Source of the DNA: Alphaproteobacteria bacterium
Lineage (GTDB): Bacteria > Pseudomonadota > Alphaproteobacteria > UBA7985
DNA length: 64,000 bases
Assembly: GCA_965662775.1 (NCBI GenBank)
Contig: CBFIIW010000003.1
Coordinates: 16,491 to 80,490, forward strand
Direction: 5' to 3'
The notes below the pieces were generated by a model, which saw only the letters and a program-made list of their open reading frames with translations, was not told the origin of the DNA and made no database searches. The position numbers were made by a program, and so were the translations under genes. Positions 1-31,902 of this stretch are shown here, piece by piece (positions within the stretch are counted from its first letter, which is position 1; each line of letters starts with the position of its first letter).

Positions 1-720
1 GTCGATGACCGCGGGAGAACCCTTGCCGTGGATCAGGCTGGCGTTCCGGCCCTGATCACAGCCGATGCCGGGCTTCGGGCTTATTTTCAATGGGCGCCAA
101 CCGACGATGGAACCATCCGGTACTTCGATCACATTGCTTTCAGTGATTTGGTGGAAGATGGTTGGACCGAGCCGCAAATTGTCACCTTTGACGCCGATTT
201 CAGCCAGCGGGACCAGCACCTGTACCCCTTTGACCCCACAGTTGTTCGGTTGGAGGACGCCCGCTATCGAATGTATTTTACCCGTAACAACAGCGCTTCG
301 CGGCCACCCAAGCGCGACTTCAGCTTATCTTCTGCGATCAGCGACGATGGTTTGCACTTTCGGCTGGAAGATGGTGATCGCCTTAAGCTCGAAGACGGTC
401 CAATCAACGACTGCGCTGTCATCTTCTTCAATGGTCTCTGGCATCTGATTTCCCCGGATCATTCCAACATCGGAGTCGCGTATTATGCGACATCGCAGGA
501 TGGTTTATTCTTTGAGCGGCAGGACAACTTGTTCTTTGATGGCGGTGCCTGGTTGGGGAACATGGTTGAGAATGAAGGCACAGTGTATTTCTTTGGCACG
601 GGCTTTACCCTCAAGACGACCGACTTCTCGCACTGGCAACTGGTGGATCGTAATCGCTTCGCAGACGCCGGTGTAGCCCTGTTTGACGGACAAATTCACA
701 TGCTATCCGTCGGCCGCTGA
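1..720 (+). CDS. 5'-truncated hypothetical protein, beta-propeller glycoside-hydrolase-like (GH43/GH32-like fold)
   Basis: The ORF is open to the window edge with no upstream stop in frame. It has repeated aromatic-rich blade-like segments (YRMYFT, NGLWHLIS, DGLFFERQ, TVYFFGTG) typical of 5-bladed propeller hydrolases. There is no catalytic motif I can name with certainty. Confidence 0.35.
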   Translation, partial: VDDRGRTLAVDQAGVPALITADAGLRAYFQWAPTDDGTIRYFDHIAFSDLVEDGWTEPQIVTFDADFSQRDQHLYPFDPTVVRLEDARYRMYFTRNNSASRPPKRDFSLSSAISDDGLHFRLEDGDRLKLEDGPINDCAVIFFNGLWHLISPDHSNIGVAYYATSQDGLFFERQDNLFFDGGAWLGNMVENEGTVYFFGTGFTLKTTDFSHWQLVDRNRFADAGVALFDGQIHMLSVGR

Positions 721-903
721 TTTTCAGCCGTGAGCTTTCACCACCACGAGTATCGAGTCTTTGGCAAATGAGCCGCTAAGCGGTCATTTCTTCTCAAAAA
801 CATATATTATCAATATAAAAATTGTTTGATACTTCCTTCAAAACATATTAATTGGATTTTCGGCGGGATCCAAAAAAATCCAGTAATTTTGACTGAGATT
901 GTG

Positions 904-1509
904 ATGACTAAAATTTGGCTGGCTGGCATTGCAGCCTTGATGATGACTGTTGGTACCCCCTTAGCCCACGCCCAGAAAAAAATTGCCGTTCACAAAGCGT
1001 TAGAATTTTCCGCGTTGAAGGTCACGGACGCGACGAGCATTAGCGCGTGCGAAAATCAGCAGGGAAGCCTCATTGGACTTGTAAACGATGGATATTCGAC
1101 GTTTGCAGCTGGTGAGATTGCAGATTACAAAAAGATTCGCTCTCGAATTAAGCGGGGAATTCGAATCCATAATAAAACGTGTGGAAGTGTGAAAGCAAAA
1201 TGGGCAAAATTTAACCCTGAGACCGTAAAGCCAAAGTATTTTCACAACCACCTTGTTTATGAAATTGAGCCTTATGAAGAAATGGCTGAGGCAGAAACGT
1301 GCATTCAGTATACTGATAAAGTCGAATATAAGACTGGACAGTATCAGGAGTACATCGAAAAATTTTCAGATGATCCAGTAAAAAATGCAGATTATGCCGG
1401 CTTATTGGAAGATGCAGCCGCTACATTGTATGATTATGTCCTGACATATGAGAATCTACAGTGTGGTGCTGTGAAAACAGGGCGTAAGCTCGTAGATTTG
1501 CTCGAGTAG
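904..1509 (+). CDS. secreted hypothetical protein (signal peptide, 4 Cys), encoded in a low-GC islet
   Basis: The N-terminus MTKIWLAGIAALMMTVGTPLAHA-QKK is a classic Sec signal peptide with an AXA cleavage site. The gene is ~42% GC against ~60% for its flanks, with an AT-rich upstream region. I do not recognise any family. An alternative start is the ORF-track M at 826. Confidence 0.55.
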   Translation: MTKIWLAGIAALMMTVGTPLAHAQKKIAVHKALEFSALKVTDATSISACENQQGSLIGLVNDGYSTFAAGEIADYKKIRSRIKRGIRIHNKTCGSVKAKWAKFNPETVKPKYFHNHLVYEIEPYEEMAEAETCIQYTDKVEYKTGQYQEYIEKFSDDPVKNADYAGLLEDAAATLYDYVLTYENLQCGAVKTGRKLVDLLE

Positions 1510-1515
1510 TTCGGT

Positions 1516-1548
1516 CCCCGGTTGCTGGAATTAAACCCACAGCCGGGG
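1516..1548. terminator. GC-rich hairpin between convergent genes (CCCCGG...CCGGGG), a possible bidirectional terminator
   Basis: An inverted repeat ccccggttg...cagccgggg sits in the 90-bp gap between the convergent CDS ending at 1509 and 1600. There is no clear T-tract. Confidence 0.3.
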
Positions 1549-1599
1549 TGCCTTCCTCTGCTGACGTGCAGTAAAGCCAGACGGGCCGAGGCATTCTAT

Positions 1600-2151
1600 C
1601 TATCGGCCGCAAGTGTCACCGATCACCAGTGTCAGACCATTTTCACTGGCGACAAAAGCGCCTTGTGAGTCCAGCGCATCGGCGGCACGATCGATTGCAC
1701 TAAATTCTAAGCCCCGCGCCAGTGCAGCTTCAACGATTGCACGCTGGCTCATCTCGCATCCGTTTTGCCCCATGATGTCTACCAAAGTGGCTTCCGACGA
1801 GTTGGGGCTGATCTCGGGCTGCGCTACAACAGTTCCGGCGCAAAGATCGCCGGTGACCAGCACGAAATCTCCATTTACATCACGCCGGACGCCGTGGGCT
1901 CTGATGAGCCGATCCAGGCTGTCCTTCATGTCGATGGGCGCTAAGCCTTCGACCGAGAGGCTGCGGTCGACAACTTCGCGAAAGGTCAGGCGGCAGTCAC
2001 TCAGTTCGAACCAGCCAACGAGGATGTCTTCTGCACGATCCTGCGCGACGGTGAGGGAACTGGCACTGGTCAGAGCGGCGGCGATTGCGGCGAGGGTGAC
2101 AAGAGGGGGCAGCACGGCCTTAGTGAAGGTTTTTCTGATCGTTTCAGTCAT
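1600..2151 (-). CDS. secreted hypothetical protein
   Basis: An internal start MTETIRKTFTKAVLPPLVTLAAIAAALTSASSLTVAQD gives a signal peptide. The start lies 5 bp downstream of the stop of the upstream PLP-enzyme gene, so the two are probably co-transcribed. No known family recognised. Confidence 0.5.
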   Translation of the reverse strand: MTETIRKTFTKAVLPPLVTLAAIAAALTSASSLTVAQDRAEDILVGWFELSDCRLTFREVVDRSLSVEGLAPIDMKDSLDRLIRAHGVRRDVNGDFVLVTGDLCAGTVVAQPEISPNSSEATLVDIMGQNGCEMSQRAIVEAALARGLEFSAIDRAADALDSQGAFVASENGLTLVIGDTCGR

Positions 2152-2156
2152 GGCGA

Positions 2157-3092
2157 TCAGGCTCCCTTCATGAACCAGTCCGGCTCTGCATTGGCACCAC
2201 AAAGCAGAACAGCAACGCGTTCATCCTTTTCCGGGAGGTAAGCACCGGAAGTGAGGGCTGCAAGGGCGGTAGCGGCACTGGGCTCAACCACGATCCGGCT
2301 GGCTTCCCAAAGGCGCCTTTGGGCCTCAAACGTGTCGGCGTCAGAAACAACGACATGACCGGCAAGCCACATTTGCGCAGCGGCCCAGCCTCGGTCACCA
2401 ATGGCGCTTGCGCCAAGTGCGCTGGCCGATATCCCACTGGGCAAAATGGAGACCTGCTCGTTTTTCTCTCGACTTGGTGCCATAGAGGCGGTCAGCTCAG
2501 TTTCAACCGAAATCACCCTGACATCGTCCTGATACTGAGACAGGATCCCGCCAATCAGGCCGCCGCCGCCAACCGAAACCAACAGGGTATCAATGTGCGC
2601 CTGGGCTGAAAGTTCCAGCGCTACTGTACCTTGACCGGCGAGCGTTGCGTCGCTGTCAAAAGGGTGGATTTCCAGTGCGCCAGTGCGCGCTGCGTGAGCT
2701 TGGCACTCAATGTATGCCTGGCCGACCGGATCTGGAACGGCGATCACCGTGGCGCCGAACCCACGCATGCGGCGTAATTTGACCTCGGCAGCAATGGCCG
2801 CTGGCACGTAGATGGTCGAAGGAATGCCCAGCGCGGTCGCTGCATAAGCAACCCCGGCACCATGGTTTCCCCCCGACGTAGCGACCACCCCAGCTTCACT
2901 TAGCGTCTGGGTCAGTAGGTTATTGAAAGCGCCACGCAGTTTGAACGAGCCGGTCGCTTGCAGGTGTTCCAGCTTGAGTGTCACCGGGAACCCCAGGCCC
3001 AAGGCGTCGACATCCATTTCCGCCACTGGGGTGCGACGGATATGGGGAGAAATGCGCCCGTAGGCGGCTTCAATTTCGGCGCGTCCAATCAT
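2157..3092 (-). CDS. PLP-dependent threonine/serine dehydratase family protein (fold-type II)
   Basis: It has the PLP-lysine motif SFKLRGA, a glycine-rich loop GGGGLIGG, and the overall length and pattern of the serine/threonine dehydratase family. Confidence 0.85.
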   Translation of the reverse strand: MIGRAEIEAAYGRISPHIRRTPVAEMDVDALGLGFPVTLKLEHLQATGSFKLRGAFNNLLTQTLSEAGVVATSGGNHGAGVAYAATALGIPSTIYVPAAIAAEVKLRRMRGFGATVIAVPDPVGQAYIECQAHAARTGALEIHPFDSDATLAGQGTVALELSAQAHIDTLLVSVGGGGLIGGILSQYQDDVRVISVETELTASMAPSREKNEQVSILPSGISASALGASAIGDRGWAAAQMWLAGHVVVSDADTFEAQRRLWEASRIVVEPSAATALAALTSGAYLPEKDERVAVLLCGANAEPDWFMKGA

Positions 3093-5295: not shown

Positions 5296-6041
5296 CGACC
5301 GCAGCATCATCTGATACTGGGCGCGAAGGCCTGTTGGTTGACGGGCTATGTGTCACCCGTGCTGGCCGGACGGTCGTACACAACCTGTCACTGCAGGTTG
5401 CGCCAGGACAACTGGTCGGCCTGCTTGGCCCTAATGGCGCGGGGAAGAGCACGGCGTTTCAGGCAATCATCGGTCTTGTCCAGAGCCAGAGCGGGGGCAT
5501 CAGCCTGAATGGTCAATCGCTGGAGCGGCTCCCAATGTTTCGCCGTGCTCGTGCTGGGCTGGGTTATATGCCGCAGGACGCCACCGTATTTACCGGCCTC
5601 ACGGTTCGACAGAACATCGCGGCCGTGATGGAAATCGGATTGCCGCGCCGCGAACGCCCGGAACACTTCGAGCATCTGGTTGAGGAATTTGCCCTCGGCG
5701 ACCTCCTCGACCAACGTGCAGAAACCCTGTCTGGTGGCCAGCGCCGCCGTCTGGAACTCGCGCGGACGTTGGCAACCCGTCCAGAAATTGTGATGCTCGA
5801 TGAACCGTTTGCAGGGGTTGATCCCATTGCCATTGACGTGCTGCAGACGGCGATCAAAACCATTCAGTCGATGGGCTATGGCGTCCTGATCACAGACCAC
5901 AACGTGCGTGAAACGTTGGCGCTGGTGGAGCATGTGGTGCTGATTGATAAAGGTGAAGTGCTGATTGAGGGCCCGTCGGCTGCAATTGAAGCAGATGAAG
6001 CGGCTAAAAAACACTATTTAGGAGAGAATTTTTCTCTTTAA
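5292..6041 (+). CDS. lptB: LPS export ABC transporter ATP-binding protein LptB
   Basis: Walker A GPNGAGKST, signature LSGGQRRRLELAR, Walker B IVMLDEPFAGVD. Sits in the lptA-lptB-rpoN context. Confidence 0.9.
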   Translation: MTTAASSDTGREGLLVDGLCVTRAGRTVVHNLSLQVAPGQLVGLLGPNGAGKSTAFQAIIGLVQSQSGGISLNGQSLERLPMFRRARAGLGYMPQDATVFTGLTVRQNIAAVMEIGLPRRERPEHFEHLVEEFALGDLLDQRAETLSGGQRRRLELARTLATRPEIVMLDEPFAGVDPIAIDVLQTAIKTIQSMGYGVLITDHNVRETLALVEHVVLIDKGEVLIEGPSAAIEADEAAKKHYLGENFSL

Positions 6042-6286
6042 ATACGGCTAAATATAGCTTGTAATTCTGATGTTCTGATCGCTGTGGCAAAAGCGCCGCA
6101 GACGCGCAAGCAATCTCCGCGCCAGATTTTATGCTCTGGCACGATTCCACCCATTTCTGGTATTAATCGTGTGATTTAGAGAACACTTTGGTTTCACTAC
6201 GAGAAAACATAAATGATTTATAATGTTTTAGATGAGAAAAGTCAGAGGCAATTTCGTGTCGAAGTCCTGGCGTCAGGGTAACGCGC

Positions 6287-7822
6287 ATGGCAATTTCACA
6301 GAATCTCGCGCTCAAACAGGGTCAGTCGCTGGTGATGACACCGCAGCTGCAGCAGGCGATTAAGCTGCTGCAGTTGTCGAATGTTGAACTTAACGAATAC
6401 ATTGAGCGTGAACTGGAAAAAAACCCACTGCTGGAACGGGATGAGACTCAGGGTGAGCCGCGGAGCTCGCCTGAAACTGTCTCCGCCGAGGGCGACGGCT
6501 CGGGTGGTGAGGCCCGCAGCAGCGATACGCCAAGCAGCGATCTAACACCGGTGAGCGAGTTGGCGCCGCTGGACGACGGCACGGCGGCAGTCAGCGAAAT
6601 TGACGATAACTGGCAAGGTCGGGACGACACGGCCGATGCACAGGTTGGTGCATCCGTCGCATTTGAGAACTGGGGCAGCGGCGGCAGCCGTGGTTTCGAT
6701 GGTGGAGAGGATTTCGACCTCGAAAACCGCCTTCGTTCGGAAGAATCCCTCCGCGATAAGATTGTAAGTCAGATCAACATTGAGCTCGACGATCCAGCCG
6801 ATCGAATGATTGCCTTCACGCTGATGGAAAATCTCGACGAAGCGGGGTATCTGCGGCTCGACTTACCGCAGATTGCCGACCGTATGGACTGCCCGCTCAG
6901 TCATGTCGAAGGCGTCCTGCGACATTTACAGGGCTTTGAACCAACAGGTATTTTTGCCCGTGACCTGAAAGAATGCCTGACGCTGCAACTCGCAGAGATG
7001 CGAGCCCTGGATGGCCCGATGATGGGGTTGCTCGATAACCTTGAGCTCCTCGCCAGCGGCAACCTGCCGAAACTCGTAAAGGTATGCCGGGTCAGCCAGG
7101 AAATCTTGGTCGAACGTGTTCGACTGCTGCGTTCGGTTGACCCAAAGCCCGCGTCTTCCTTCAACATAGATGCGGCGCAAGTGGTGACGCCTGATGTGCT
7201 CCTCCGGCCCAACCCGGCTGGGGGCTGGATTGTGGAGCTGAACCCCGACAACCTGCCACGAGTTCTGGTTAACAACACCTATTCTGGCATGGTTACGGGC
7301 GGCAAACTGCGCAAAAAAGACAAAGATTATCTCAACGAGCAGATGCAGACAGCGAACTGGCTGGTTAAGGCGCTGCACCAGCGCGCCACGACCATCATGA
7401 AGGTGGCCTCGACCATCGTTGAGCGGCAGGAGCTGTTCTTCACCAAGGGTGTGCAGCATCTCAAGCCCCTCATTCTCCGCGATATTTCAGAGGCGGTGGA
7501 CATTCACGAGTCGACGGTATCCCGAGCGACCACGAATAAGTACATCAGCACGCCACGCGGCATATTCGAGCTGAAATATTTCTTCACTGCGTCCATCTCG
7601 GCGGCTGGCGACGGTGAGGCTCATTCGGCAGAGGCCGTCCGGCATCGAATCAAAGCGCTGGTCGATGCGGAACAGGCAAATGCGATCCTTTCCGACGATA
7701 CGATCGTAGACCTGCTGAAGGACGATGGCGTTGATATCGCTCGGCGGACAGTGGCAAAATACCGCGAAGCTTTGCGCATCCCATCGTCCGTGAAGCGCCG
7801 CCGCCTCAAAGCCATGGCCTGA
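6287..7822 (+). CDS. rpoN: RNA polymerase sigma-54 factor RpoN
   Basis: N-terminal Gln/Leu-rich activator-interaction region (LVMTPQLQQAIKLLQLSNVEL), an acidic linker, and the C-terminal RpoN box ARRTVAKYRE. Confidence 0.95.
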   Translation: MAISQNLALKQGQSLVMTPQLQQAIKLLQLSNVELNEYIERELEKNPLLERDETQGEPRSSPETVSAEGDGSGGEARSSDTPSSDLTPVSELAPLDDGTAAVSEIDDNWQGRDDTADAQVGASVAFENWGSGGSRGFDGGEDFDLENRLRSEESLRDKIVSQINIELDDPADRMIAFTLMENLDEAGYLRLDLPQIADRMDCPLSHVEGVLRHLQGFEPTGIFARDLKECLTLQLAEMRALDGPMMGLLDNLELLASGNLPKLVKVCRVSQEILVERVRLLRSVDPKPASSFNIDAAQVVTPDVLLRPNPAGGWIVELNPDNLPRVLVNNTYSGMVTGGKLRKKDKDYLNEQMQTANWLVKALHQRATTIMKVASTIVERQELFFTKGVQHLKPLILRDISEAVDIHESTVSRATTNKYISTPRGIFELKYFFTASISAAGDGEAHSAEAVRHRIKALVDAEQANAILSDDTIVDLLKDDGVDIARRTVAKYREALRIPSSVKRRRLKAMA

Positions 7823-11587: not shown

Positions 11588-12354
11588 ACGCGTTGAGCAA
11601 TCTGTTCATGATCACCGACCGCAATGTCAGCTTGAGCCTGGATGACGCTATCCGGGTTTCGGACCTGAGTTTGGGGTATGGCGGCCCGGCCGTGATCTCA
11701 GGTGTCAGCTTTTCTGTCCATCGGGGTGAGCGATTGGCGATTATCGGTGCCAATGGGGCTGGCAAGTCCACCTTGCTCAAGGGGATGTTAGGCCTGCTCC
11801 GCCCGGACGCGGGACAAGCAAGCTTTTTGGGTCGGCCATTTTGGGCAGTCCGCCCGCACGTGGCCTTCGTCGCACAGGCGGATGAGACTGATTGGGACTT
11901 TCCCAGCCGAGTCCGCGATCTGGTTGCCATGGGGCGCGGGGTCCACCTTGGCCTGACCGGGCGGCTGGGTGTTACCGACTGGCGCGCGGTCGATGCAGCG
12001 ATGGAACGGCTGAACATTACTGAGCTTGCGACCCGCCCGTTGGCTGAACTGTCCGGCGGTCAGCGCCGGCGCGTGCTGCTGGCACGGGCACTGGCACAGG
12101 ATCCCCAGATCATGCTCCTCGATGAACCATTTCAGGCCATCGACGCGTCTACGCGCGAGGCCCTGATTGCTGCACTGGATGACTTCCGCGAGGAAGGCAA
12201 GACCGCCCTCGTCGTGCATCACAATCTTGGTGAGATGCGCAGCCTGTTCGATCGTGTGGCACTGCTGGATCACAGCATTACAGCGATTGACCGACCGGAA
12301 GCGGTGCTTGCGTCGGCGGCCTTCGAGCGCGCCTTCGGCATCTCTGCCCGCTAA
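11584..12354 (+). CDS. metal ABC transporter ATP-binding protein
   Basis: Walker A GANGAGKST, signature LSGGQRRRVLLAR, Walker B IMLLDEPFQAID. Confidence 0.9.
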   Translation: MNALSNLFMITDRNVSLSLDDAIRVSDLSLGYGGPAVISGVSFSVHRGERLAIIGANGAGKSTLLKGMLGLLRPDAGQASFLGRPFWAVRPHVAFVAQADETDWDFPSRVRDLVAMGRGVHLGLTGRLGVTDWRAVDAAMERLNITELATRPLAELSGGQRRRVLLARALAQDPQIMLLDEPFQAIDASTREALIAALDDFREEGKTALVVHHNLGEMRSLFDRVALLDHSITAIDRPEAVLASAAFERAFGISAR

Positions 12355-13306: not shown

Positions 13307-14214
13307 TGCTACTCAGCCATGACCTGCCCATTGTACTGACACTGTTAGGTGCCGGCATTACAGCCATCTTGGCCGGCAGTCTTCTGCTTCCGCGCGGGCA
13401 AATCATGATCTCAGAGGCGGCCAGTCATGCCGTGCTTCCCGGTATGGTTCTGGGCTTTGCGCTCTCCGGGCAGCATGGCGGAGTGATGATCGCAGGCTCG
13501 GTCTTTGCCATCGGCCTGTTTATGATCCTCGCCGGGTGGCTGCGGGGGCGGCATCGTCTGGGAAGCAGCGTCGAAGTTGCAGCATTATTCCCGATCTTTT
13601 TTTCCCTCGGGGTCATTGCGCTGTCGCTCACCGGTTTGGAAGATACGGCCGCAATCGATCTCGATCACGTTCTGTTCGGCTCGCTTGAATTGATCCTGTG
13701 GCTGGATGTCTTTGGGCCGGCTGACCTGCTCCGGCCTGCGGCATGGCGTACTGCGCCAGAGCCAATGCTGCAGGCGCTGGGCGGCGCTGCGTTGGCGCTA
13801 ATGTTGGTGCTGGCATCCTATCCGCTGATCAACCGCTCCCTGATGGATGGTTCGTCGTCAGCGCTGATGACACCCATCCGTCATTGGTTTGTGCGTGGGC
13901 TGGAGATCATTGTGATCGCAACAGCCAGCGCAGTATGCCTGCGAACGGCCGGTGTGGTTGTCGCGATCGCTTTGTTCGGCGCGCCGGTAATCGGAGGATG
14001 GTGTCTCGCTCGCAATCTCTGGCAGGTCTGGCTGGCAGCGCTGGGCATCATCATTCTAGCACTGGGGCTCAGCTACAGCGCCAACACCGTCCTGCTCGAA
14101 GTCTTTGGTATCGAAGCCCGACTGTCAGGAGTGCTGGCGTTGTGTCTCGTGATAGTAGCAACTCTGCTACCAATCACGGTCCGCCGGGACAGATCCCGGC
14201 GCCCTTTGCCTTGA
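13303..14214 (+). CDS. metal ABC transporter permease (ABC-3 family, second subunit)
   Basis: Polytopic membrane protein overlapping the previous permease stop. This two-permease arrangement is typical of mntCD/sitCD. Confidence 0.8.
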   Translation: MMLLSHDLPIVLTLLGAGITAILAGSLLLPRGQIMISEAASHAVLPGMVLGFALSGQHGGVMIAGSVFAIGLFMILAGWLRGRHRLGSSVEVAALFPIFFSLGVIALSLTGLEDTAAIDLDHVLFGSLELILWLDVFGPADLLRPAAWRTAPEPMLQALGGAALALMLVLASYPLINRSLMDGSSSALMTPIRHWFVRGLEIIVIATASAVCLRTAGVVVAIALFGAPVIGGWCLARNLWQVWLAALGIIILALGLSYSANTVLLEVFGIEARLSGVLALCLVIVATLLPITVRRDRSRRPLP

Positions 14215-14282
14215 TGACCCGAGTGCCAATCAATGGAAAATTATGGCACGGAATGACGTTTTTCTGTCTTAGATAGATAAAA

Positions 14283-14513
14283 CTAAGATTTTTTCAACAC
14301 TTGAGCCTGACTGATCCATTGATTTCGATGGGCATGTGCAATTCGAGTGGCAAGGTCGTTCAGTCGCTCACTTTGATCTTCTAGGAATTCTCCATCATCG
14401 ACAGTGCACCGATCGGTGCGCCAGGGGGCGTCCAGGTGATGAACGAGTGCATCGACAGATTGGATGAGGTTGGTCTTGAGACCTTCAAAGATGTGATCGT
14501 TAGTGGTGTTCAT
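14283..14513 (-). CDS. orphan hypothetical protein (76 aa) in an AT-rich islet next to tRNA-Ala
   Basis: It is the only ORF in a ~570-bp, ~42% GC stretch. No recognisable family, so its coding status is uncertain. Confidence 0.3.
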   Translation of the reverse strand: MNTTNDHIFEGLKTNLIQSVDALVHHLDAPWRTDRCTVDDGEFLEDQSERLNDLATRIAHAHRNQWISQAQVLKKS

Positions 14514-14795
14514 TATTCGGCAACCAATTTGCTGGGATTTTAAGTTCTGAATTTAGTTGCACATGGTTATTTTTAAGCGAAAACAACCAAGCGCATACGC
14601 GTGCTAGTGAAAACTCAAGAAACGGTCAAAGAAAAATATAGCCATCGAAAAAATCAAATTTGAGCACGAGGACAGGAAAATTCGAGGATCAAGGCCGATA
14701 CATTTCAAAAACAACAATCGTGTGCATATTAATCCACAAACCGACGGAAATTCGGTGCAAATAAATCAACGATGTCTGAGGCATAGGGGTAAAAA

Positions 14796-14871
<76 letters not shown>

Positions 14872-14987
14872 ACGCTGCTGGAAACCGGGCTCTGCATACT
14901 CAACCTGACTGGCTTTGTCGAAGCCTTTTTCAGTGCAGTCCGGGAATGCTTGGCAGCAGCACGATTAAAGTGCCGCTGCCGTTTGGT

Positions 14988-15491
14988 TTAGATGGTGTCA
15001 TCCGCTTCGGACTTAAATCCATCGACTGGAAGACCCGTGTCGTCCAACTCGTCGTCGTCGTCGAGTAGCGAGTCGTCCTCAATTTTGTTATCGTTTTCGT
15101 CATCTTCGAAATCGTCTTCGAGGGAGACTTCACCATCGTCATCGACCACCAGATCGGTTTCACCGTCTTCAAGTGTTTCGGCATCGACCTCGTCGAGGGC
15201 CACCGCCTTGACGGTATCCTCCTCGTCTTCGTCTTCCTCCTCGGCGACATCGCCAGCCTTGGGTGATTCGTTTTCTGCATCCGCAAGCTCAGGAGCCGGT
15301 GCGGCTTCTTCCTTAGCGGTTGCAACAGCGGCGGCGGCGACACGACCGCGGCGGGAGCGCATGACTGCTTCCGGATCGTATTCGGTGCCGCAAGACGGGC
15401 AGACAGCGGGATCCTTGTTCAGATCATAGTATCGCGCGCCACAACTCTGGCAGATGCGCTTGATACCGTATTCTTCTTCCAATTCAGGCAT
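14988..15491 (-). CDS. FYDLN_acid zinc-ribbon protein (TIGR02300 family)
   Basis: CxxC...CxxC zinc ribbon with the family-defining YYDLN motif (ICQSCGARYYDLNKDPAVCPSCG), then a long Asp/Glu-rich tail. The start is taken at MPELEEEY (15491), preceded by a GAGG. Confidence 0.75.
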   Translation of the reverse strand: MPELEEEYGIKRICQSCGARYYDLNKDPAVCPSCGTEYDPEAVMRSRRGRVAAAAVATAKEEAAPAPELADAENESPKAGDVAEEEDEDEEDTVKAVALDEVDAETLEDGETDLVVDDDGEVSLEDDFEDDENDNKIEDDSLLDDDDELDDTGLPVDGFKSEADDTI

Positions 15492-31017: not shown

Positions 31018-31212
31018 GCGTTCAGTCTGACCTCTCCACCTTGGTGAACCGCCCCCTTATTTTCCCGGCCTCTACAACCTGAAACCACCGCCGCACTCTA
31101 GCGCAGAAACGCCAATAATTGGAGGTTTTCAAATCGGTACTGGCTTTGGGTCAGGGGAATAGATTATTTATGCCCCAGACCACAGCTAAAATTCGATCCA
31201 AGGAAAAAGAAC

Positions 31213-31902
31213 GTGATTCGGATGGATCAGATCAGTGTGGATTTCCCCGACCGCGCCGGGGTTCTGCAGGAGGTCTCTTTGCAGATACCCAGCGGCGGTT
31301 TCCGATTTGTCACCGGTCCCAGCGGTGCCGGCAAGACCACATTGTTGCGACTGATGTTTCTGGGACTGCAGCCCAGCCGCGGCCGCCTCGACATCTTTGG
31401 ACGCGACGCAAGGCGGTTGACCCGAGATCAGAAGGCCCTCGTTCGGTCCCGGCTTGGTGTTGTGTTTCAGGATTTCCGGCTGATCGACCACATGAGCGTC
31501 TATGACAACGTTGCGCTACCGCTCAGGGTATCAGGCAAAGACCCACGCTCAGACCGCGATTACGTGCACGAACTGCTCCACTGGGTTGGGTTGGGCGAGC
31601 ATGCTGATGCGCGCCCGGCGGCGCTCAGCGGTGGTCAGAAGCAGCGCGTTGCTATTGCCCGTGCTGTAATCAACCGGCCCAGTCTGCTGCTTGCCGATGA
31701 ACCCACTGGGAACGTTGACGACGGCATTGGGCTCAAGCTCATGCGGCTGCTCGAAGAACTCAACAAGCTTGGCACCACCGTCGTTGTCGCCACACACAGT
31801 GGCGCAGTACTGCAGCGCTTCGACTATCCTTGTATCCATCTGGAAGGTGGTCGGGTCCTCCATGGCAGCCGTGCGACCTCGAACCCTGGGGGTACACTAT
31901 GA
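31213..31902 (+). CDS. ftsE: cell division ATP-binding protein FtsE
   Basis: Walker [10 protein letters not shown], signature [13 protein letters not shown], Walker [13 protein letters not shown]. Confidence 0.9.

Follow-up and report, generated by a model that had tools for sequence, protein, structure and literature searches.

Does a short stretch of low GC content in a GC-richer chromosome mark a recent arrival, or a resident locus that has changed faster than its surroundings? The question is raised by an islet at positions 721-1600 of a 64-kb stretch of DNA from an uncultured alphaproteobacterium (contig CBFIIW010000003.1; this whole stretch is hereafter called the window), which carries one gene, at 904..1509 on the + strand, for a 201-residue protein. 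The initial annotation, made from the sequence of the window, saw in the islet a recent horizontal acquisition of a small exported factor, whether toxin, bacteriocin-like peptide, immunity protein or host-interaction factor. Comparison with relatives leads elsewhere. The gene belongs to a family that is resident in a single chromosomal slot where its copy number varies from 0 to 4, and that is fast-evolving, mosaic and depressed in GC throughout. On balance, we regard the islet as probably the single-copy local member of this exported family of uncultured marine Alphaproteobacteria, its product being, more tentatively, a two-module, immunity-like binder.

The compositional break itself is far beyond chance. 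The GC content of the islet is 43.3%, compared with 58.1% for the whole window; it falls to 36.1% in the upstream part (721-903) and stands at 43.1% in the coding sequence (CDS; 904-1509). When GC is computed over 880-bp sliding segments (mean 58.2%, standard deviation 3.1), the minimum of the window lies in the neighbourhood of the islet (z = -4.9). GC at the first, second and third codon positions of the CDS is 0.51, 0.36 and 0.42, and the last of these values (GC3) ranks lowest among the 59 open reading frames (ORFs) of the window (mean 0.641, standard deviation 0.064). The Karlin codon bias of the gene relative to the other ORFs is 0.557, as against 0.345 +/- 0.047 for 860 length-matched control segments, the highest of which reached 0.507. 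Both the low-GC islet and the A/T-rich third codon positions that had been noted from the sequence are thus borne out by calculation. Further GC dips in the window, at 5900-6300 (the 3' end of lptB and the lptB-rpoN spacer) and at about 13840-15340 (tRNA-Ala(GGC) at 14796-14871, a small ORF and the gene of a very acidic 181-residue protein), are without a family member. The most deviant codon usage in the window is that of an ORF at 31119-31505 on the + strand (GC3 0.44), which overlaps, in another frame, a probable ABC ATPase gene (31213-31902) and is most likely spurious.

A gene family resident in one copy-number-variable slot

The window protein matched nothing in Pfam, NCBIfam or the sequences of the PDB, had only weak matches in PHROGs (best E 0.016) and none in PADLOC, where a relative, P0003, gave a weak match to PtuB (E 0.024); the earlier statement that it belongs to no recognisable family therefore holds. 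A word-seeded search of 5.8 billion proteins recovered only the window protein itself, a scan of metagenome contigs with this one protein yielded nothing beyond an identical copy, and viral contigs held no relative. An exhaustive phmmer search of 1.84 billion cluster representatives yielded two genuine relatives, P0003 (200 residues, E 2.7e-10, 29% identical to the window protein from end to end) and P0006 (112 residues, E 1e-4). Three other matches from this search, P0002, P0004 and P0005, are long repeat proteins whose scores are spurious sums of short-motif matches, and were rejected. P0002, for instance, matches only through a short 'G-l-x-v-x-x-x-C-G-s-i-x-l-s-W' motif in about 14 repeat units; from their sequence, these units would be FN3-like domains rich in beta-structure, in contrast to the query, for which helices are predicted. 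Profile searches expanded the family to about a dozen clusters at 90% identity, every one of which is of marine metagenomic origin and lacks a Pfam domain; they represent the same marine group, and the homologues are too saturated in sequence for a reliable tree. The label of orphan is therefore nearly right, and what it covers appears to be a small family, not described before, whose Sec-exported members have about 110-220 residues.

In the window, the slot occupied by the gene lies between two convergent genes for secreted orphan proteins, one upstream that we call 'propeller' after its earlier label (3' part, 1..720, +) and one downstream, sec183 (1600..2151, -), which is followed by the gene of a pyridoxal phosphate (PLP)-dependent enzyme (2157..3092, -). 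Relatives were located by using this enzyme (PF00291) as an anchor. In the genome collection the anchor identified seven metagenome-assembled genomes (MAGs), at 86-89% identity, with the GenBank labels Geminicoccus sp., Rhodospirillaceae bacterium and Alphaproteobacteria bacterium. A sister clade is formed by L005, L006 and L011 together with the metagenome contigs that bear family members, its PLP enzymes being 96-99% identical to that of L077 and 88% to that of the window. L007-L010 were set aside as uninformative: their PLP enzymes are likewise 86-89% identical, but sec183 and the RNase D-like gene were undetected beside them, they hold no family copy, and the context appears different.

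Within the sister clade the content of the slot varies widely. In L077 and L078 a RidA gene is followed by four tandem family genes, encoding proteins of 212, 112, 192 and 200 residues, and then by sec172, the counterpart of sec183, and the PLP gene; frameshifted copies of this four-copy layout are present in L081, a contig labelled 'pilon'. There are two family genes in L080 and L072, one gene of the 200-residue type (200-type) beside sec172 in L070, a contig of 973 bp, and a split gene of the A-type (defined below) in L071. Only L005 and L006, among the sister-clade genomes, have no family gene in the slot; 'propeller' is found there instead, and the convergent stop codons are 54 bp apart, compared with 879 bp in the window. 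L011 retains no more than a 41-residue family remnant (hidden Markov model (HMM) E 1e-4; about 11640-11812, -). To the left of its junction the sequence aligns with the spacer that follows RidA in L072, and to the right with the 3' end of the L070 gene of the 200-type, the two sharing 8 bp of microhomology (TGACCTCG); the remaining 41 codons have since gained stop codons. A junction at microhomology points to deletion in situ, and thus to arrays that were resident and have been lost in place.

The window gene is the sole local member of the family (family HMM E 7e-72), a scan with the same HMM having found no second copy in the 64 kb. It occupies the position of the 200-type, beside sec183, and resembles that type in its length, in the absence of a linker and in being closest to it in both of its modules, although its identity to the positional homologue is only 26-29%. 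Every family copy is preceded by an AT-rich region of 130-250 bp of its own, and neither a repeated attC-like element among the copies nor an integrase in the loci was found. An integron cassette array, in which promoterless cassettes would each be followed by an attC site, was rejected on these grounds.

The islet is equally stable within the species of the window. In the index of public assemblies, about 90-107 blocks contain exact matches to the sec183 and PLP proteins, and all 21 of the 21 contigs of this species that were read (from OSD-, Tara- and Logan-labelled samples and one NCBI MAG, in a look-up biased towards near-identical strains) carry the 201-residue gene between 'propeller' and sec183 at an identity of at least 99.7%. 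The gene shows 0-2 single-nucleotide polymorphisms (SNPs), a level equal to that of its flanks. It follows that the islet is not strain-specific in the sampled population, and homologues in L070, L072, L077, L078, L080 and L081, with the remnant in L011, extend its presence in this slot to the sister clade.

Moreover, the low GC of the islet is shared by its homologues. The family genes of L077 and L080 have a GC content of 0.54-0.60 and a GC3 of 0.63-0.68, between flanks with values of 0.64-0.69 and 0.80-0.87, and the P0003 gene in L070 has a GC content of 54% between flanks of 65%. The offset in GC3 between family and flanks is about -0.17 to -0.20 in L077 and L080, and -0.22 in the window (0.42 compared with 0.64). 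Since all family copies lie below their flanks in GC and GC3, low GC is a trait of the family and of the locus and not a signature of recent acquisition; homologues of depressed GC do, in substance, occupy this very position in the sister clade, much as the initial annotation would have expected of an ancestral low-GC gene. Plausible causes of the persistent depression in GC3 are AT-biased mutation where allelic divergence blocks homologous recombination and GC-biased repair, weak codon selection, or both, which are accounts that rest on general knowledge.

The family is also set apart from its neighbours by its rate of change. Between L077 and L080 the flanking genes show a nonsynonymous divergence (dN) of 0.006-0.046 and a ratio of nonsynonymous to synonymous divergence (omega) of 0.02-0.24, as compared with a dN of 0.15-0.35 and an omega of 0.25-0.41 for the family genes; for the 200-type, in L070 and L077, the values are 0.13 and 0.44. 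Overall, the family proteins change 3-58 times faster than those of the flanking genes. Omega for the family ranges from 0.10 to 0.44 and is below 1 everywhere, so that the genes must be real and constrained. Between the window and the sister clade, dN is 0.078 for the PLP enzyme and 0.78-0.85 for the orphan protein, a ratio of 10-11, which is no higher than the family/PLP ratios of 21-58 among members of the sister clade. An identity of 26-29% can thus be explained by vertical descent at the pace usual for the family. Recombination has contributed as well: P0009 and P0010, which are A-type paralogs (for example, L077 4806-5444), are 96% identical over the signal peptide and N-module but 46% identical over the linker and C-module, a mosaic that argues for exchange of the C-terminal module. 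The synonymous divergence (dS) of the A-type genes between L077 and L080, 1.4 against 0.19-0.45 in the flanks, suggests in turn that old or imported alleles are present at the slot.

Predicted export and architecture of the product

The CDS at 904..1509 includes the stop codon, and runs from an ATG at 904 to a TAG at 1507-1509. The N-terminus has, on inspection, the layout of a Sec signal peptide (residues 1-23; 904..972, +), with a charged n-region (MTK), a hydrophobic core (IWLAGIAALMMTVG) and a c-region (TPLAHA) that ends in an AxA site before QKK; there is no lipobox. All family members have a signal-peptide-like N-terminus, the equivalents in the others ending in AQA before Q or in ASA before D or E. 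In public assemblies the gene is started at a TTG at 826 (P0001, 227 residues), which would bury the signal peptide and is not borne out by the N-termini of the homologues; this start was rejected. Cysteines occur at residues 49, 93, 133 and 187. The signal peptide and the four cysteines had both been recognised in the initial annotation, and we read them in the same way. The protein would accordingly be Sec-exported, to the periplasm or beyond, and the even and conserved number of its cysteines is consistent with disulfides formed outside the cytoplasm. A single SNP in one contig of the window species (L089, 4811-5248, -) cuts the called product to 145 residues, and may represent a rare null allele.

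A single-sequence AlphaFold2 (AF2) model was useless (pLDDT 40), but a model built from the family alignment, with 10 sequences, reached a pLDDT of 70 and a pTM of 0.46. It predicts strands at residues 27-35, 96-103, 116-123 and 188-195 and helices at 43-68, 72-92, 131-156 and 163-184, that is, two modules of beta-alpha-alpha-beta topology. The N-module (residues 24-106; 973..1221, +) contains Cys49, the pair Cys93-Gly94 and a KKxR motif, is basic (isoelectric point (pI) 10.0, net charge +9) and is the conserved half of the protein. The C-module (residues 112-201; 1237..1506, +), with Cys133 and the pair Cys187-Gly188, is acidic (pI 4.2, net charge -12) and hypervariable. C49, C93 and G94 are invariant in every alignment, and C133, C187 and G188 nearly so, being the only positions of the C-module of which this can be said; in the motif, K76 and K77 are invariant in four members and R79 in eleven, with K76 present in at least 90% of the eleven. 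The charge split is found in every member (N-modules of pI 9.1-10.2 and net charge +3 to +10; C-modules of pI 4.2-6.3 and net charge -1 to -12), and, like the signal peptide, the cysteines and the KKxR motif, is kept at 20-30% identity. The 112-residue paralogs consist of the N-module alone.

The Cys...Cys-Gly pairs stand in register between the two modules of the model, which suggests that each is probably held by one disulfide staple and that the protein arose by an ancient internal duplication, for which the sequence comparison itself gives marginal values (blastp E 0.057; hhalign P of about 0.05). A fold search with the AF2 model in the PDB and BFVD found only generic helical-hairpin neighbours, the Foldseek matches to MexA being weak. 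In the A-type paralogs P0007, P0009, P0010 and P0012 (for example, L072 416-1078), the modules are joined by a spacer of 20-45 residues of repeated (K/E/D)-P, of the kind PKPEPKPEPDPDPVDP. The sole Pfam signal of these paralogs is the EP/DP-repeat model Trypan_PARP. Their linkers resemble the rigid, proline-rich, periplasm-spanning spacers of TonB-type proteins, but the family lacks the TonB C-terminal domain, and the window copy and the 200-type have no such linker.

Recent acquisition and other explanations

Among the alternatives, the one that survives best is a recent horizontal acquisition or allelic replacement, in which a cassette of promoter and gene, drawn from a member of this gene pool with a lower GC content, would have been placed between the convergent genes; we nevertheless consider it unlikely. 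It would account for a copy that is an outlier in codon usage and that, at 43% GC, lies below both the window (58%) and the other copies (54-60%), and for L005 and L006, where the same two flanking genes are separated by just 54 bp. The high dS of the A-type alleles, an indication that old or imported alleles do circulate at the slot, fits it as well. Further evidence is an imperfect direct repeat of 19 nt, placed exactly at the two borders of the islet. Its left copy (CATGCTATCCGTCGGCCGC; 699..717, +) covers the last codons of the upstream gene, its right copy (CATTCTATCTATCGGCCGC; 1592..1610, +) extends over the stop codon of sec183, a gene of the opposite strand, and the last codons before it, and the two match at 16 of 19 positions, a score attained in 0 of 2000 shuffles and in 0 of 1622 real segment pairs 890 bp apart (local Monte Carlo). 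The repeat is present in the contigs of the window species, and no counterpart was found flanking the sister-clade arrays. Recombination across it, however, would fuse both genes without their stop codons, so that it qualifies neither as a clean att site nor as a target duplication. Apart from this repeat and the very low absolute GC, nothing points to an insertion or replacement in the lineage of the window.

Several results speak against recent acquisition. The sister-clade homologues lie in the same slot, where loss has demonstrably taken place in situ; the offset in GC3 relative to the host is about equal in all lineages; the islet is fixed and invariant in the 21 contigs of the species; neither an integrase or transposase nor an adjacent tRNA was found at the islet, and no viral match was obtained; and the divergence of the gene fits the family's own rate. 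The proposal of a recent acquisition is therefore not upheld, and we return to a gene that belongs to a resident family, as probable.

Some observations nonetheless sit uneasily with a resident gene for a two-module, immunity-like binder. The GC content of the window copy is below that of every other member of the family, and the islet has at precisely its two borders a direct repeat of a kind less frequent than expected by chance; both observations would fit the insertion or replacement of a cassette in this lineage. The gene upstream of the slot changes with the lineage: this species has the cadherin-repeat gene (see below) and 'propeller', and relatives with arrays have RidA. Export, like the disulfides and the two-module fold, is a prediction, the fold coming from an alignment of 10 sequences and a model of pTM 0.46, and the evidence that the two modules arose by duplication is weak (hhalign P of about 0.05).

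As to function, we tentatively propose a periplasmic or envelope binding protein with an immunity- or inhibitor-like role. Such a binder is favoured by the combination of dispensable tandem paralogs, of a conserved, anchor-like module with a hypervariable one, and of exported orphan neighbours. After cleavage of its signal peptide, the protein would fold into the two beta-alpha-alpha-beta modules, each probably stapled by one disulfide. The conserved basic N-module, with its KKxR motif, could dock to a conserved anionic component of the envelope, and the variable acidic C-module could bind a foreign partner that varies and is probably cationic, for example a toxin that degrades cell walls, a lysozyme-like enzyme or a phage protein. 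An immunity- or inhibitor-like role under diversifying selection would then drive the fast evolution, the changes in copy number and the swapping of modules. More speculatively still, and with correspondingly greater reserve, the family may represent a hitherto unknown type of module for defence or recognition at the envelope of abundant marine Alphaproteobacteria, in which a disulfide-stapled basic hairpin serves as an anchor and a swappable acidic one neutralises or recognises foreign proteins. Tandem arrays at a fixed slot of the core genome would, in that case, form a small expandable repertoire against phage proteins, toxins and the lysozymes of grazers.

It seems improbable that the protein is instead an accessory periplasmic chaperone, envelope-stress or structural protein, like Spy/CpxP or Skp, whose fast evolution reflects relaxed constraint. 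With the Spy/CpxP/ZraP (LTXXQ) proteins, Skp/OmpH and the MexA-type alpha-hairpin it would share export and, in the model, long antiparallel helical hairpins, and in Skp and MexA the hairpin is flanked by beta-strands, as is predicted for the family. Omega stays below 1 at all the copies compared and so does not demonstrate positive selection, and the gene is dispensable, being absent from L005, L006 and L011. The topology of a hairpin between strands recalls Skp and the hairpins of membrane-fusion proteins, although the fold-search matches, including those to MexA, are weak or generic. No member, however, has a match to LTXXQ/Spy, OmpH/Skp or another such Pfam family, and 0-4 divergent tandem copies with swapped modules would be unusual for a housekeeping chaperone.

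A secreted toxin, bacteriocin-like protein or host-interaction effector is more doubtful again, and among the functions suggested for the gene at the outset, toxin or bacteriocin is the least supported. The protein is small, apparently exported and polymorphic, and a conserved N-terminal half joined to a variable C-terminal half is superficially like the organisation of polymorphic toxins. None of the loci, however, has an adjacent gene for immunity, maturation or dedicated export; no catalytic motif or match to a toxin family was found; and the C-module is predicted to be an acidic helical hairpin of about 85 residues, the 112-residue, N-only paralog being without the 'toxin' part altogether. 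Finally, an ORF that is decaying or has no function, in a junk spacer, as might be imagined from the AT-rich sequence, the remnants and frameshifts in L011, L071 (with its split A-type gene) and L081 and the truncating SNP in L089, is hardly credible for a reading frame of 201 codons that about 20 independent assemblies show intact and unchanged and whose signal peptide, four cysteines, KKxR motif and charge pattern persist at 20-30% identity with an omega of 0.10-0.44.

The setting of the slot, known systems and significance

The genes in the neighbourhood of the islet are 'propeller', sec183, the PLP enzyme, an RNase D-like gene, LptA and LptB. The description of the neighbours in the initial annotation stood in part. 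The PLP-dependent enzyme (PALP family; PF00291, E 6e-60), which serves as the synteny anchor, and the secreted sec183 are confirmed, but no family or solved structure supports the label of propeller-hydrolase for the upstream gene, the product of which, even as its full-length homologue, has no match in Pfam, NCBIfam or the PDB sequences. This upstream protein measures 299-305 residues in full-length contigs, and its versions in L091 and L005 have signal peptides, the window copy being 76-77% identical to that of L005. Its presence in the sister clade is confined to genomes without the family array (L005 11660-12550, -; L006 11663-12545, -), and the copy in L006 appears to be frameshifted, with matches in two reading frames. 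Just upstream of the start of the window, L091 (9465-12815, -) encodes a cadherin-repeat (PF00028) protein of 1116 residues, probably a large secreted adhesin; with this gene directly upstream of 'propeller', the whole neighbourhood would encode exported proteins.

On the downstream side, sec183 is an orphan secreted protein of 183 residues with four cysteines and no Pfam match. Together with its counterpart sec172 (for example, L077 7590-8108, -), it has a C-terminal Cys-Gly, is always paired with the PLP enzyme and, from the window to the sister clade, is conserved at 52-55% identity. It was considered as a distant member of the family and rejected, as hhalign aligns only the signal peptides.

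Of the noncoding elements, a short terminator-like hairpin (stem 772-784) with a T-rich tail follows the upstream gene (772..794, +). It is succeeded by the AT-rich upstream region or leader of the orphan gene (795..903, +), which presumably includes its promoter, although a scan of the + strand upstream of the gene for a sigma-70 consensus gave no match. A box at about 814-847 (ATAAAAATTGTTTGATACTTCCTTCAAAACATA) recurs 5' of family copies in relatives, and the leader also contains a small inverted repeat at 852-873. The GC-rich hairpin reported beside the islet is indeed present, at 1516..1548 between the convergent orphan and sec183 genes, where it is probably a bidirectional terminator; comparable GC hairpins are found 3' of the last family copy in L070 and L077. 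Hairpin stability at the islet is not significantly above that of shuffled sequence, and no Rfam family matches within or around it.

Two kinds of known locus come closest to the one described here. The first are the orphan arrays of periplasmic immunity genes, for example of the Tsi/Tai type, that belong to polymorphic-toxin and type VI secretion systems (T6SS), and acquired interbacterial defence clusters. By analogy, the family is like these arrays in its small, presumably Sec-exported products, its divergent tandem paralogs, its variation in copy number and presence, its fast evolution and its low GC. It differs in having no similarity of sequence or structure to known immunity families and no effector, Rhs/VgrG, CdiA or T6SS gene adjoining any of its copies, and a conserved N-module combined with a swappable C-module would be atypical of immunity proteins. 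The second are the flexible or hypervariable islands of marine bacteria, in which the content at one position of the core genome varies and often encodes envelope proteins. The slot shares with these a varying content between conserved genes, a lower GC and exported products ('propeller', the family and sec172/183). Such islands usually extend over tens of kb, whereas the slot is a spacer of 54 bp when empty and about 3 kb with four copies; it has no mobility genes, holds mostly one paralogous family and, in the species of the window, appears to be monomorphic.

The locus is thus of a familiar kind, a fast-evolving, lineage-specific array of exported proteins in a flexible chromosomal slot, and it is the family itself that is new. 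For the scanning of genomes it carries a caution, in that a textbook-like signal of horizontal transfer, with breaks in both GC content and codon usage, turned out to be a resident fast locus once relatives were compared. The work defines a family of exported, previously unannotated proteins, with no match to a curated family and no informative structural neighbour, that is characterised by cysteine staples, a charge split, the swapping of modules and arrays of 0-4 copies; its present value lies in being a defined and testable family rather than in the discovery of a mechanism. The host is an uncultured alphaproteobacterium that is found, near-identical, in many ocean metagenome assemblies. 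Loci of this sort are candidates for antagonism at the level of the envelope with phage, toxins and grazers, of which little is known in uncultured marine heterotrophs.

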